The notes beneath the pieces are model-generated. The model did no database searches and was not told the origin of the DNA. It saw only the letters and a program-made list of their open reading frames with translations. A stretch of 64,000 nucleotides of DNA, taken from Candidatus Sericytochromatia bacterium (GTDB lineage: Bacteria > Cyanobacteriota > Sericytochromatia > S15B-MN24 > UBA4093). The stretch spans positions 148,167 to 212,166 of the forward strand of contig JAKFBU010000041.1 in NCBI GenBank assembly GCA_036676985.1. Direction: 5' to 3'. Below are positions 14,110 to 28,442 of the stretch, piece by piece (position 1 is the stretch's first letter; each line of letters starts with the position of its first letter). The position numbers and the translations under genes are program-made.

Positions 14110-15302
14110 CCCAGACCGCCGAAGGCTTCAAGGTACAGTTCAAGCGCAACCGCGACGCGCGGGTGCTCTCCGGTCACCCCTGGGTGTTCTCGGGCGAGGT
14201 CCTCGAGAAGCCGCCCGCCGAGGCCGACGGCCAGATCGTCAGCGTCTACGACGCCCGGGGCCGGTGGGTGGGCCAGGGCTACTGCAACACCCAGTCCAAC
14301 ATCCTGGTGCGCATCCTGAGCCGCGTGCGCGGCGAGGTGATCGACCGCGCGTGGTGGCAGCGGCGGCTCGCGGAGGCCATCGACCTGCGCCAGGACTACG
14401 TCTCGGGCACCGACGCCTACCGGCTCATCAACGCGGAGTCCGACGGGGTGCCCGGCCTGGTCGTCGATCGCTACGGGGACTACCTCTCTATCCAGGTGCT
14501 CGCCCTGGGCATCGAGACGCGGCGCGACGAGCTCGTCGCGATCCTCGCGGAGCTCGTGGGCCCCAAAGGCATCTACGAGCGCAGCGACGTGCCGGTTCGC
14601 CGGCTCGAGGGGCTCGAGCAGCGCACGGGCGTGGTCTGGGGCGCGGAGCCGCCCCAGGACCTCGTCATCCACGAGGGTCCCTACCAGCTCCACGTAGACA
14701 TCACGTCGGGGCAGAAGACGGGCTTCTTCCTGGACCAGCGGCCCAACCGGCTGCAGGTGGGGGAGCTCAGCAAGGGCAAGCGGGTCCTCAACTGCTTCAG
14801 CTACTCGGGCGGCTTCACCATGGCCGCGGCCCTCGGCGGGGCGAGCGAGGTCGTGAGCGTCGACATCTCCGCGGACGCGGTCGCGCTCGGCGAGGCCAAC
14901 GCGCGTCTCAACGGGGTCGAGGACCGCTGCAAGTGGGTGGCGGCGAACGCCTTCGACTTCCTGCGCGAGCAGGAGAAGGCGGGCGAGCTGTACGACGTCG
15001 TGATCCTGGACCCGCCCGCCTTCACCAAGACCAAGGAGTCCATCCCGGGCGCGGTGCGCGGCTACAAGGAGATCAACCTGCGGGGCATCCGGCTGCTCAA
15101 GCCGGGCGGCCTCCTCGTGAGCGCCTCGTGCTCGCACCACATGGATCCCACGCTCTTCGTGAACGTGATCCAGGAAGCCGCGACGGACTCGGGCAAGCGC
15201 CTGCGCATGCTGCAGCTGGCGGGCGCCGGCATGGATCATCCCACCTTGCCCGCCGCCTCGGAGACGAACTACCTCAAGTGCTTCTACGGCACCGTGCATT
15301 AA
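14106..15302 (+). CDS. rlmI: RlmI-like 23S rRNA C5-cytosine methyltransferase (PUA + SAM domain)
   Basis: GHPWVF, ESDGVPGLVVDRYG, GQKTGFFLDQR, LNCFSYSGGF, LDPPAF, ASCS, YLK. Confidence 0.88.
   Translation: MTQTAEGFKVQFKRNRDARVLSGHPWVFSGEVLEKPPAEADGQIVSVYDARGRWVGQGYCNTQSNILVRILSRVRGEVIDRAWWQRRLAEAIDLRQDYVSGTDAYRLINAESDGVPGLVVDRYGDYLSIQVLALGIETRRDELVAILAELVGPKGIYERSDVPVRRLEGLEQRTGVVWGAEPPQDLVIHEGPYQLHVDITSGQKTGFFLDQRPNRLQVGELSKGKRVLNCFSYSGGFTMAAALGGASEVVSVDISADAVALGEANARLNGVEDRCKWVAANAFDFLREQEKAGELYDVVILDPPAFTKTKESIPGAVRGYKEINLRGIRLLKPGGLLVSASCSHHMDPTLFVNVIQEAATDSGKRLRMLQLAGAGMDHPTLPAASETNYLKCFYGTVH
15277..15298 (+). repeat. attL core
   Basis: AGTGCTTCTACGGCACCGTGCA, identical to 28421-28442. 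Confidence 0.93.
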
Positions 15303-15373
15303 CTTGTACAGTGTTAGCCCCCGTTAGCTGATCCTTGCGAAATCAGGCTCTTCCGCCTATTCTGACTTGTAGC

Positions 15374-15438
15374 TTCCTACTCCAGTTTTGTTGGTTTTTG
15401 TTCTCGAAAGTAGGAATGCAGTAGGAATAGCGTAGGAA
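15374..15438. promoter_or_regulatory. Putative integrase arm-type sites (left)
   Basis: GTAGGAA at 15410, 15421, 15432 (11-bp period) plus inverted TTCCTAC at 15374. Confidence 0.7.
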
Positions 15439-15453
15439 CGGGGGCAAAGCACC

Positions 15454-16734
15454 ATGCTTGATGGCGGCCGCAAGTTCAAGTTCAGCAAACCCACCCTGGA
15501 GGCCCTTCCGCTACCGGAGCCGGGCAAGAAGGTCCGGTATCGCGACACGAAGGTGAACGGCTTGGCCGTACTCGTGACGGGCAACGGCTCGAAGGCCTTC
15601 TATCTGTATCGTCGCTACCAGGGCAAGCTCTACGAGAAGCAGATCGGTACGTGCGATGACCTGAGCGTGGAACAAGCAAGGCGCAAGGCCGAGGAGTGGA
15701 TCGGCCAACTCACCCGCGGCCAGGAGCCTGGGCAGGTGAAGCGCAAGAAGGACCCGACGTTCGCGGAGCTGTTCGAGTGGTTCATGGAGATCCACGGGCG
15801 CAAGGCCAAGGATGGAGGCGCCCGGCGCCGCATGCAATTTGGTTACTTAGAGCCCCTGGCGAGAAAGCAAGCGATCAAGGTGTCGCGTTCCGACGTGATC
15901 ACTCTGCAAGAGCGAATAACCGAAGAAGTAGGGGCACCGACGGCAAACCGAGCGGTCGGACTGATGCGTGCCGTCTACAACCAGGCGATCGACCGCGAGG
16001 CCTTCAACATCACGACCAACCCGGCCAAGAAGATCGCGAAGGCCGATGAGGGCCGAGGGCGGGAGCGGCGGCTTGAGCATCGCGAGATAGGCCCCTTCCT
16101 CGACGCGGCAGACGCCGAGCCTGTCCCGGATATCAAGGACCTCATCCTGGTGGCCCTCTTCACGGGTGCCCGTCGGTCCAACGTGCTTGGGATGCGCTGG
16201 GACCAAATCGATCCCCTCACCCAGGCGTGGACCATCCCTGACGAGGATTTCAAGACGGGCGAAGCTCATATCGTGCCGCTACCCAAGCTAGTGCAAGGGA
16301 TCCTGGAGGCACGCCGCACGTCGGCAACTGGCACCCTGGTTTTTCCAGGCAAGGGCCAGGATGGCAAGCGGACCTCCCCCTACCACAGCCTCAAGCGCCT
16401 GCTAGATCGGGCGGGCATCCAGGGCTTCACCTTCCATGACCTGCGCCGGACGTGCGCGACCTACATGGGCGAGGCGGGCGTGGACCAGTACCTCATCAAG
16501 CGGGTACTGGGCCACACGGTGGCGGATGTGACCGGCATCTACAACCGTCCGGGACTGGAAGCCCGGCGAGAGGCGCTTGAGAAGGGAATCGCGCTGATGC
16601 TGGATAAGGCCGGACGGCCCCGTCGGGACGACGGCACGTACCCCCTGCGCCATGATGAGCACGCAAGCTCGGCGCCGAGGATCAGCAAGCCTCCAAGCAA
16701 AAACAACCTAAAACCAAGGAAAGAAGCGGGATAG
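15454..16734 (+). CDS. int: Tyrosine recombinase/integrase with N-terminal arm-binding domain (P4-like)
   Basis: YRDTKVNGL..V..NGSKAF arm domain; TGARRSN (R), HDLRRT, LGH, GIYN (Y). Confidence 0.95.
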   Translation: MLDGGRKFKFSKPTLEALPLPEPGKKVRYRDTKVNGLAVLVTGNGSKAFYLYRRYQGKLYEKQIGTCDDLSVEQARRKAEEWIGQLTRGQEPGQVKRKKDPTFAELFEWFMEIHGRKAKDGGARRRMQFGYLEPLARKQAIKVSRSDVITLQERITEEVGAPTANRAVGLMRAVYNQAIDREAFNITTNPAKKIAKADEGRGRERRLEHREIGPFLDAADAEPVPDIKDLILVALFTGARRSNVLGMRWDQIDPLTQAWTIPDEDFKTGEAHIVPLPKLVQGILEARRTSATGTLVFPGKGQDGKRTSPYHSLKRLLDRAGIQGFTFHDLRRTCATYMGEAGVDQYLIKRVLGHTVADVTGIYNRPGLEARREALEKGIALMLDKAGRPRRDDGTYPLRHDEHASSAPRISKPPSKNNLKPRKEAG

Positions 16735-17093
16735 GATACCCAACGAACCGTAACGCTAAACCGGCCGATTACGCACCTTGTGGACAACCCTATCCTGGCT
16801 GTAACCTTGTAGAACAAAGAGAGGCAATCCCCCACGCCCTAGGAAAGCAAAGGGATTGCCTCGTTCACCCGCTATCAAGCCTCTGGACAAGGCTCGATAG
16901 GCGCTTTCGAACTCCAGGCCGAATCCGTGGACAGGACCAGGCCAGGAGCCGATCTCTAACTCTACGCGGCCAGTGGCAATTTGCCAACCCGCCATATGTT
17001 CGAGTGTCGATGGTGCCGATCGTGGGCGGGGATCCAAGTGCGGATCCCCGCTATCCTTTCCGAGCTTGAAGCTACAGGAAAGGATAGTTGACG

Positions 17094-27039: not shown

Positions 27040-27310
27040 GGGGGGCGTTGTCTTAATTTGAGGCGTCATTGGTCCATACAGTTCCGCGATTCCCGCGTTA
27101 GGCACCAACAAGCGCTTGAGATGTTTTTTAAAGCCTTACCTCCCCGCTCCAGCAACTGGCATCCGCCGTACGTTTGCATAGTGTCTGCGTTAGATCCTGC
27201 CAGGTAGAATAACCCGTAGGCTGCTGCTCCTCGGTACGCTCGACCGCAAGCATACCGAGGTCTGGCGCTACAAGACCTATCGGCAGGGCCTCAAGTGGGA
27301 GGAGCGAATT

Positions 27311-28066
27311 ATGGCTTGCGATGACTCCGAGATGCCGCATGAGCTTGCGGAGTTTTTCGGCTGGGATACGAAGGATCACCGGACGACGCTGACACTTGAT
27401 ATAACAGCAATCGTGCAAGCGATTGACCAGGACCCGGACACCCCGCTCAGGCTTCATTTGCCCGATGGGACCTTTCGAACAGATCCTGCCAATATCTGGA
27501 ACGCCTTCCTCGATCTCTCCCACTTGTTGATTAACACCCTGAGCATCCTGATCCCCGAGGCTAACAAGAGGGGATGGGAGGTCTTGCCCTTCAAGTTTGC
27601 GGACTTCAACATGGAGGGAGCGATCGGGCTCGACAGTCTCCGAGCGATAAACGATCGAGTGCAAGAGGTTCTGGTCGAGAACGGGATCGATCAGGTAATT
27701 GAGGCGGATCGGCTGTGGGGCCGTCTCGAAGGGTTGCCCCTCGCAGAGCCCGATGAGCCGTATAAGCTGGACGCTGAACTCCGATACCTTGAGGAGCTAT
27801 CGAAGTCAATCGCCAAAGGCATCCTGCGGCCTCTAATGCACCTCGATCCCCCATGTGCTTGTGGGGCACGCATTTGGCCAACCGTTGGCCGTGACATGCG
27901 TTACGGGGGGAAGCCCCGGCTCTGCGATCGCTTGTGTCCCGATTGCGAGTTAGAGCACCGCCGGAGTGTGAACGCCGAGCGTCAAAAAGCACACCGCAAG
28001 CGGAGCAAGGCCAAGGCAGCGAAGCGACTTGCGACCAAGCGGAAGCGTGTCACCCCCCACGGCTAA
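27311..28066 (+). CDS. Hypothetical protein with C-terminal Cys cluster and basic tail
   Basis: PCAC...LCDRLCPDC...RQKAHRKRSKAK; GGAGG RBS. Confidence 0.65.
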   Translation: MACDDSEMPHELAEFFGWDTKDHRTTLTLDITAIVQAIDQDPDTPLRLHLPDGTFRTDPANIWNAFLDLSHLLINTLSILIPEANKRGWEVLPFKFADFNMEGAIGLDSLRAINDRVQEVLVENGIDQVIEADRLWGRLEGLPLAEPDEPYKLDAELRYLEELSKSIAKGILRPLMHLDPPCACGARIWPTVGRDMRYGGKPRLCDRLCPDCELEHRRSVNAERQKAHRKRSKAKAAKRLATKRKRVTPHG

Positions 28067-28319
28067 TTACGCGTCGGCCACGCAGGAGGCCCTGGAACCC
28101 GCCTTCCTCTTCCTAAATATGGAATCACCCCAACCACGCAAGCAAGGTTCTTTCTAGGGCATCCTCGCGAGCCGCACTCAGAGGGGAGCGAACAAGGCGG
28201 GACAATCAAGCTTGGGAAGGAGGACGCGCGTCGGGGATGATCGAGAAGGAAGTCGCCAAGAGTTCCACTCCAGGCTGGTCTTGACCCACAAGCAGTTTCT
28301 AGCAGGCCGCGCGATTAAA

Positions 28320-28337
28320 GTAGGAATAGAGTAGGAA
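28320..28337 (+). promoter_or_regulatory. Putative integrase arm-type sites (right)
   Basis: GTAGGAA at 28320 and 28331, same motif and period as at the left end. Confidence 0.7.
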
Positions 28338-28420
28338 TCGTGCAAATTTAGGACTGGAGCCAAATCGCCCAGACACCCTGCTTACAACCTCTTTAGCCAT
28401 CACAAAACCAGTAGGCACCC

Positions 28421-28442
28421 AGTGCTTCTACGGCACCGTGCA
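28421..28442 (+). repeat. attR core (displaced original rlmI 3' end)
   Basis: AGTGCTTCTACGGCACCGTGCA followed by CTAG (His-stop). Confidence 0.93.

Follow-up and report, generated by a model that had tools for sequence, protein, structure and literature searches.

Results

An island at the 3' end of an RlmI-family gene

The stretch of DNA analysed here, 64,000 nucleotides from the genome assembly of a Candidatus Sericytochromatia bacterium (hereafter the window), contains a lower-GC (guanine plus cytosine) island of 13,144 bp, bounded by an exact 22-bp direct repeat at 15277-15298 and 28421-28442, the left copy of which lies at the end of a gene for an RlmI-family 23S rRNA methyltransferase (rlmI; Table 1). 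The core of the island, 5.8 kb up to an intrinsic terminator, carries in this order genes for an integrase (int), an excisionase (xis), a primase, a DUF3987 helicase, a conserved protein of 213 aa and a RusA-type resolvase (rusA); the 7.3 kb beyond the terminator are cargo. The GC content of the island is 0.50-0.68, with a trough of 0.50-0.58 at 21.2-23.0 kb, against about 0.65-0.73 on either side of it. Each island gene occurs once in the 4.68-Mb assembly, and the window holds neither a tRNA or tmRNA gene nor any Rfam family.

The repeated 22-mer, AGTGCTTCTACGGCACCGTGCA, occurs at just these two sites in the window even with up to three mismatches, and two matches on the same terms arose in none of 100 shuffles; the direct repeat claimed for these positions by an earlier, sequence-only reading is thus exact and unique in the window. 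The product of the target gene shows the PUA plus class I SAM (S-adenosylmethionine) methyltransferase architecture in Pfam. Since it scores 331-344 bits against the NCBIfam RlmI-type models, under their equivalog cut-offs of 575-712, we call it RlmI-family.

The left copy of the repeat is followed by T-TAA, so that the integrated rlmI ends in CAT TAA at 15302, and the right copy by C-TAG and then by a perfect 13-bp GC hairpin. Both ends encode the C-terminus ...CFYGTVH, in agreement with the sequence-only reading, and the methyltransferase protein is unchanged because attP holds the same 22 bp and a stop codon. The same reading spoke of a repair of rlmI. The gene is indeed kept whole, but this is the ordinary effect of a 22-bp identity over its last seven codons: the element's own share of the rlmI end is the last base of the His codon and the stop codon, nothing more. 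No comparable hairpin lies downstream of the attL-side stop (fold z -0.7), and, with the original hairpin displaced and no equivalent after the new stop, read-through from rlmI into int appears possible.

An empty site in a nearly identical strain

Public sequencing runs were searched with 10 kb spanning attL, and the Logan contigs of runs X1, X3, X4 and X5 were aligned to positions 12000-31000. The query was fully contained in two soil metagenome runs, which are probably the source; two more runs of the same study held 0.42-0.47 of its words, and two groundwater runs of a separate study 0.25-0.35. In X3, one contig of 11,148 bp (depth 36.7) spans 12211-15276 and then 28421-31000, with two and three differing letters, respectively. 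The joint 15276->28421 omits 13,144 bases, and 22 letters fit either side. A contig of 543 bp shows the same joint in X4, where the shorter side has 100 letters, and the support in X5 is weak (21 letters). The bins of the island have depths of about 0-3 in these three runs, where uncovered island parts were counted only jointly with contigs bridging the joint.

A 99.9%-identical strain therefore holds the precise empty site, in which rlmI ends in CAC TAG, followed by the hairpin and then by a DUF308/HdeD gene; this is the empty attB, with rlmI directly before the HdeD gene, that the sequence-only reading had envisaged. Site-specific recombination placed the island in a 22-bp core formed by the last seven codons of the RlmI-family gene. 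Recent movement is suggested by the polymorphism of the island between 99.9%-identical strains, and we describe the island as recently mobile. In the case of X1, the likely source run, contigs break exactly at 15269-15298 and 28421-28450, and the depth, a rough measure when derived from contigs, is 24.4 and 23.4 in the flanks versus 17.6 and 17.0 in the island. These breaks, together with the depth gap, are consistent with a minority of island-free cells in this run too.

Genomes of the same family show how the site is arranged elsewhere. In four of them (G002, G003, G004 and G007) the rlmI homologue is directly followed by a homologue of the amidase gene found here at 29336-31669, and the same adjacency is probable in G006, where it rests on a 60-aa match at a contig end. 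The 22-bp core is conserved in the same-family genomes, with one mismatch in G004 and G007, and an integrase within 1.5 kb of rlmI was found in none of the 11 reference-genome loci fetched. The DUF308/HdeD gene (28598-29266), which stands here between rlmI and the amidase gene, is missing from that position in the same-family genomes, rlmI and the amidase gene being direct neighbours there; it lies outside the island, since the island-free X3 contig carries it. In a genome of the same genus (G001, locus L002, 2244-3596), rlmI ends in ...CFYGTVN TAG and is followed by a long ORF (open reading frame; more than 450 aa) without known function, neither HdeD nor amidase, so that the region 3' of rlmI is variable within the genus.

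Table 1. Features of the island and of its target gene (positions in the window; aa, amino acids; HTH, helix-turn-helix; TM, transmembrane segment; GC3, GC content at third codon positions)
Feature	Position	Strand	Basis or remark
Target gene, RlmI-family 23S rRNA m5C methyltransferase, 398 aa	14106..15302	+	Pfam PF17785 (PUA_3) 2.1e-21, PF10672 (Methyltrans_SAM) 1.2e-26
attL core, 22-bp identity block	15277..15298	+	Repeat; empty-site joint falls inside, 22 letters match both sides
P' arm, putative integrase arm-type sites: GTAGGAAT at 15410 and 15421, GTAGGAAC at 15432, inverted GTAGGAAG at 15373-15380	15373..15439	.	Repeat pattern, 11-bp phasing
Tyrosine integrase, P4 type	15454..16734	+	Pfam Arm-DNA-bind_3 8.5e-12, Int_N 1.6e-7, Phage_integrase 9.8e-23; phrog_1 9e-65
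Excisionase/AlpA-like HTH, probable ATG at 17094	17088..17285	+	HTH_17 (PF12728) 8e-12; TIGR01764 excisionase 3.1e-7
DNA primase (Zn ribbon, DUF7146 and Toprim_3), ATG overlaps xis stop by 8 nt	17278..18429	+	Pfam; phrog_510 2.4e-62
DUF3987 replicative helicase, overlaps primase end by 11 nt	18419..19738	+	PF13148 5.7e-10
Putative origin, AT-rich 220-bp intergenic region	19739..19958	.	Perfect 16-bp inverted repeat 19809-19824 / 19847-19862 nested in a 10-bp one; four clustered GTCGTA/TACGAC hexamers
Conserved unknown protein, 213 aa, coupled by ATGA to rusA	19959..20600	+	Homologue search, conserved module
RusA-type Holliday-junction resolvase	20597..21034	+	PF05866 6.9e-11; phrog_34 5.9e-9
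Intrinsic terminator closing the core module, 15-bp stem and T-rich tail CCTGTTTTAG	21052..21085	+	Sequence/fold
Two ORFs in the lowest-GC part, 125 aa (no match) and 194 aa	21092..22078	-	GC3; family scans
Orphan cargo region	22576..28066	.	About nine ORFs without Pfam, PHROG, NCBIfam or PADLOC family at the thresholds used
Orphan ORFs	22576-22848; 23569-23742; 23927-24457		No family match
Truncated large serine recombinase, 244 aa, catalytic domain and first half of Recombinase domain	22866..23600	+	Resolvase 4.7e-31; Recombinase positions 1-50 of 102
Orphan ORF	24417-24716	-	No family match
133-aa ORF, STGPKTPEGK motif	24764-25165		No family match
ORF with Zn ribbon and TM	25208-25411		No family match
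ORF with weak N-terminal HTH	25562-26008		No family match
Orphan TM ORF, 286 aa	26012-26872		No homologue but itself
251-aa ORF, C-terminal Cys cluster and basic tail	27311-28066		No family match
P arm, two GTAGGAAT putative arm-type sites (28320, 28331), 11 bp apart	28320..28338	+	Repeat pattern
attR core, then C-TAG (original rlmI end)	28421..28442	+	Repeat; empty-site joint
Original rlmI terminator-like hairpin, 13 GC-rich pairs, 3-nt loop, parted from the gene by the insertion	28468..28496	+	28440-28510 folds at -42.9 kcal/mol, z -2.7

Integration module

The features of a lambda/P4-type integrative element are present: a repeat at both ends, one end in the target and an integrase adjoining one end. 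Exact GTAGGAAT occurs four times in the window, each copy at most about 140 bp from an att core, and these arm repeats either side of the core give the island a lambda-type att architecture, a pattern that matches an integrase with an arm-binding domain. The integrase translation contains the motifs ARRSN, HDLRRT and GIYNR. An ORF beside the excisionase gene (16973-17182) has no family match.

Close relatives of the integrase are few. One, on a 13.9-kb Logan contig (P0002), reaches 67% identity, and all others in the same search stay at 38% or less; in further searches the values are at most 41% in order-level genomes (39% by tblastn), at most 33% in the genome-contig scan and 28% at best in IMG/VR. 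The order-level integrase loci had no rlmI and no tRNA in the fetched flanks. Judged by these identities, the integrase lineage is rare.

Replication core

The DUF3987 protein carries a Walker A motif (GASSRARKGTS) and a Walker B motif (DKRLLVSEGE), which are invariant across 30 homologues; on a mobile element, a DUF3987 protein has been shown to act as a 5'-3' helicase together with a primase (PMC11724360). The intergenic region that follows (19739-19958) folds as DNA with z = -3.9, none of 200 shuffles folding as well, and is a candidate origin of replication.

For the 213-aa protein encoded next to this region, a search of 1.84 billion representatives gave no more than 20 relatives at E<=1e-3. 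The family shares a module of ~70 aa with GPGGP.A at its end, and some relatives carry this module twice. The AlphaFold model of the 213-aa protein is confident (pLDDT 79.2) and has no fold match in the PDB, where the best Foldseek E value was 0.61 and the best VIA match, on a helical hairpin, had Z 6.8.

Cargo

Twenty-two ORFs of the island were scanned against Pfam, PHROGs and PADLOC, and island ORFs were compared with NCBIfam as well. The int, xis, primase, DUF3987, RusA and serine recombinase genes listed by the sequence-only reading are recovered with Pfam, PHROGs and NCBIfam, with two amendments: the serine recombinase consists of its N-terminal 244 aa only, and xis is now pinned to 17088-17285. 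The truncated recombinase covers positions 9-228 of 542 in CcrB and 88-308 of 651 in phrog_95, and the ORFs downstream of it show no Recombinase or Zn-ribbon match and no remnant of the rest.

The 194-aa protein encoded on the minus strand just beyond the terminator has a weak Xre-type HTH (HTH_3 0.009, under the cut-off) and a hydrophobic, Gly/Ala-rich C-terminal tail; it is possibly a regulator. For the 286-aa ORF the best Atlas score was 0.80, a lead only. The single-sequence model of the 251-aa ORF was unusable (pLDDT 41.9), and its Atlas score of 0.93 to unnamed clusters is likewise only a lead. PADLOC gave no match among the 22 ORFs, and thus no defence profile. With about 7 kb of cargo in 13 kb, the element can hardly be called minimal, as the sequence-only reading did.

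A region with an STGPKTPEGK-type motif, as in the 133-aa ORF, was seen by tblastn just 3' of DUF3987 helicase genes in two of 80 metagenome loci (L040, 5447-5563; L055, 1376-1468). There are hints that the 133-aa ORF might encode a small conserved accessory protein of elements with a DUF3987 helicase. A DUF5681 protein of another locus (L045) was considered as its kin and rejected as unrelated.

Absence of recognizable transfer and packaging genes

None of the 22 ORFs belongs to a capsid, terminase, portal, connector, Sid/Psu-type, head/packaging or relaxase family in Pfam, PHROGs or NCBIfam, and the view of the sequence-only reading that no capsid, terminase, relaxase or T4SS (type IV secretion system) gene can be recognized stands as far as profile scans of the island ORFs go. 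A profile search of the 4.68-Mb genome returned no Terminase_6N, TerL_ATPase, Phage_capsid (HK97), VirB4 or T4CP. The same search, run with PF13148, missed the DUF3987 gene of the window itself (5.7e-10 by hmmscan), so that moderately scoring members can be missed and the whole-genome negatives are weak.

Distribution of the helicase family

The DUF3987 helicase belongs to a very large clade: at E<=1e-10 its homologues number more than 1,447, and many of them are joined to a primase domain of the Toprim, Prim-Pol, PriCT or RepB type. Relatives occur in at least 346 metagenome stretches and 46 IMG/VR loci. One relative (P0062) shares 69% identity; only four cultured phages carry a homologue, at 28% identity or less. 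As a single query against IMG/VR, the helicase gave no match. Relatives of both integrase and helicase occur in metagenome-assembled genomes labelled Melainabacteria or Obscuribacterales.

By tblastn, the 80 metagenome helicase loci contained relatives of the integrase (15), the primase (3), xis (1), the 133-aa ORF (2) and the serine recombinase (1), and none of rlmI, the 213-aa ORF, RusA or any further cargo gene. In the 46 IMG/VR loci, the integrase was found in seven, xis in two and the serine recombinase in one. Pfam annotation covered 148 of 355 ORFs and 11 of the 26 loci of at least 10 kb, two giant ORFs being dropped. Among these 11 long loci, five had a tyrosine integrase, one a serine recombinase, four HTH_17 or AlpA, one a small terminase and one a large terminase; a capsid or portal gene within 7 kb was found in none. 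The small terminase (Terminase_4; L047, 11358-11657) stands alone shortly 3' of the helicase gene, giving that locus a PICI-like look, and the large terminase (L052, 10373-11134) is a fragment near a helicase relative. As these gene neighbourhoods show, the replication module circulates among small integrative elements, some of them satellite-like, and phages. Such a wide spread means that the module by itself is no indicator of lifestyle.

Discussion

A number of small integrative elements combine an integrase with replication genes of their own, and in this study we have described one that is present in, and precisely absent from, nearly identical bacteria. Most likely it is an integrated, excisable and self-replicating genomic island of 13,144 bp that is not self-transmissible. 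From the domain families, a model can be proposed in which the P4-type tyrosine integrase would bind the core and the flanking GTAGGAAT arm sites on both arms and, together with the HTH_17 excisionase, would recombine attL with attR within the 22-bp core, yielding a circle. This circle would replicate from 19739-19958 with the Toprim primase and the DUF3987 helicase that its own coupled genes encode, junctions would be processed or resolved by RusA together with the 213-aa partner coupled to it, and re-integration would restore the end of rlmI, as attP would hold the same seven codons and stop, while parting rlmI from its terminator hairpin.

Several points weigh against this model. The circular attP joint is not among the joints listed from the assembled contigs of X1, X3, X4 and X5, which drop rare forms, and its absence therefore says little on current excision. 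Presence and absence alone cannot separate a recent insertion from a recent excision. The truncated serine recombinase and several orphan ORFs indicate that part of the element may be decaying. Position and pattern are the sole basis for the putative origin and arm sites and for the roles suggested for RusA and its 213-aa partner. Finally, no route of transfer between cells is recognizably encoded; a helper phage would most probably package the island, with vesicles or transformation as alternatives.

Comparison with known systems places the island among familiar elements. The search model for PICMI consists, as described, of an integrase, AlpA (PF05930 or PF12728) and a DUF3987/DUF5906 primase, with fis; without the fis requirement it returned 135 elements in complete genomes, integration at fis being presented as the hallmark of PICMI proper (PMC10803314). 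The island holds the three-gene core (PF00589, PF12728 and PF13148 within 4.3 kb) at an RlmI-family gene instead of fis, and it is therefore PICMI-like in gene set and no PICMI. As in the PICMI described from Vibrionaceae, there is an integrase, an AlpA/HTH_17 regulator-excisionase and a DUF3987 replication protein, short direct repeats lie at the end of an intact protein-coding gene, and genes for capsid remodelling are absent. The island differs from that description in its target, in its size (13.1 kb versus about 6 kb) and in its host lineage; in addition, its primase and helicase are separate genes, RusA, the partner ORF and cargo are extra, and no helper is known.

The cargo tycheposons of Prochlorococcus, according to their description (bioRxiv 10.1101/2020.12.28.424599), resemble the island in size (10-20 kb), in their tyrosine recombinase, excisionase, primase/helicase and cargo, in the lack of capsid or conjugation genes and in being polymorphic in natural populations. 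They are described at tRNA/tmRNA genes, whereas the island has a protein-coding target, and membership there rests on hallmark profiles, while the likeness drawn here is one of gene content. With P4-like satellites the island shares a P4-type integrase with Arm-DNA-bind_3, an AlpA-like HTH and a Zn-ribbon/Toprim primase; in contrast to them, it has no equivalents of psu, delta, sid or epsilon detected in its 22 ORFs, its helicase is a separate DUF3987 protein and its target is no tRNA gene. Unlike PICI and cfPICI, its ORFs include no small terminase, capsid or packaging-redirection family (Pfam, PHROGs), and unlike integrative conjugative or mobilizable elements, no relaxase family (Pfam, NCBIfam). 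TIGER/Islander catalogued about 1.75 million islands, 43.4% of them in protein-coding sequences and 58% unclassifiable by gene content, with a size peak at 10 kb (PMC12424338); like the uncategorized islands there, ours is typical in its protein-coding target, its unclassifiable content and its size.

The likeness to PICMI raises the question of whether the island is a phage satellite, silent until a helper infects and then excised, replicated and packaged in helper capsids, a life cycle for which PICMIs need no more than int, alpA and a DUF3987 primase. We consider this doubtful, though the most tenable of the alternatives. The three-gene core is the same as in the PICMI model as described (PMC10803314), the island has no transfer machinery of its own, its helicase has relatives in 46 IMG/VR viral contigs, a lone small terminase stands beside the helicase in one of the 11 long metagenome loci (L047), and RusA is a phage-type gene. 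On the other hand, cargo islands that are not satellites, tycheposons among them, have this gene set just as typically by the published descriptions, the 22 ORFs showed no terS, capsid, Sid/Psu/Ppi-like or cos-related feature, and the island depth under the flank depth in X1 indicates no induction there; the lack of terminase and HK97 capsid families in the genome adds little, as the search missed the island's own DUF3987 gene. Satellite status and a helper phage are matters of inference. The new minimal satellite family put forward by the sequence-only reading is not supported: no packaging, capsid-redirecting or helper-sensing gene and no helper was found, and the core is the published generic set of the PICMI model without fis. 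The same core also makes up the integration and replication hallmarks of tycheposons as described (bioRxiv 10.1101/2020.12.28.424599).

Another possibility, which we regard as improbable, is that the island is what decay has left of a larger temperate phage or composite element, with int and xis still working as a pair. The truncated serine recombinase, RusA, the heterogeneous GC content with its trough and the cargo of orphan ORFs would fit such an origin. However, the block that runs from int over xis, primase, helicase and ORF to rusA is complete and compact, its genes are translationally coupled and a clean terminator closes it; no fragment of a structural gene was detected with PHROGs, and polymorphism among 99.9%-identical strains suggests that the island moved recently and is not a remnant fixed long ago. 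Mobilization in trans by a conjugative element is very improbable: the island has an integrase without transfer genes, and such elements are common, but its ORFs contain no relaxase family, primase-helicase replication modules are atypical of such elements, and VirB4 and coupling-protein families were absent from the genome in the same weak search.

The preferred reading thus remains that of an excisable, self-replicating island. Its int-xis-primase-helicase core and its integration logic are already well described; the island belongs to a class already known, in which it is nothing unusual, and it leaves the understanding of such elements unchanged. In the literature searched, no report linked rlmI to an integration site, the TIGER catalogue of island targets, which might list it, lying outside that search; rlmI is absent from one supplement of PMC12884075, and titles and abstracts on Sericytochromatia and integrases had nothing on mobile elements. 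What the island adds is a precisely mapped small replicative element that only part of a natural soil population carries, in a lineage that has been little studied, and rlmI as a further protein-gene attachment site, new-looking in the literature searched. It is unlikely that a helper-dependent satellite lineage of non-photosynthetic cyanobacterial relatives, with a previously unreported attB in the last seven rlmI codons, has its first representative in this island; if this were true, the orphan cargo and the 213-aa partner of RusA would provide novel means to sense or exploit a phage not yet known. From a practical point of view, the set of integrase, attP and attB, with a defined core and putative arm sites, might be put to use in the genetic manipulation of such organisms.

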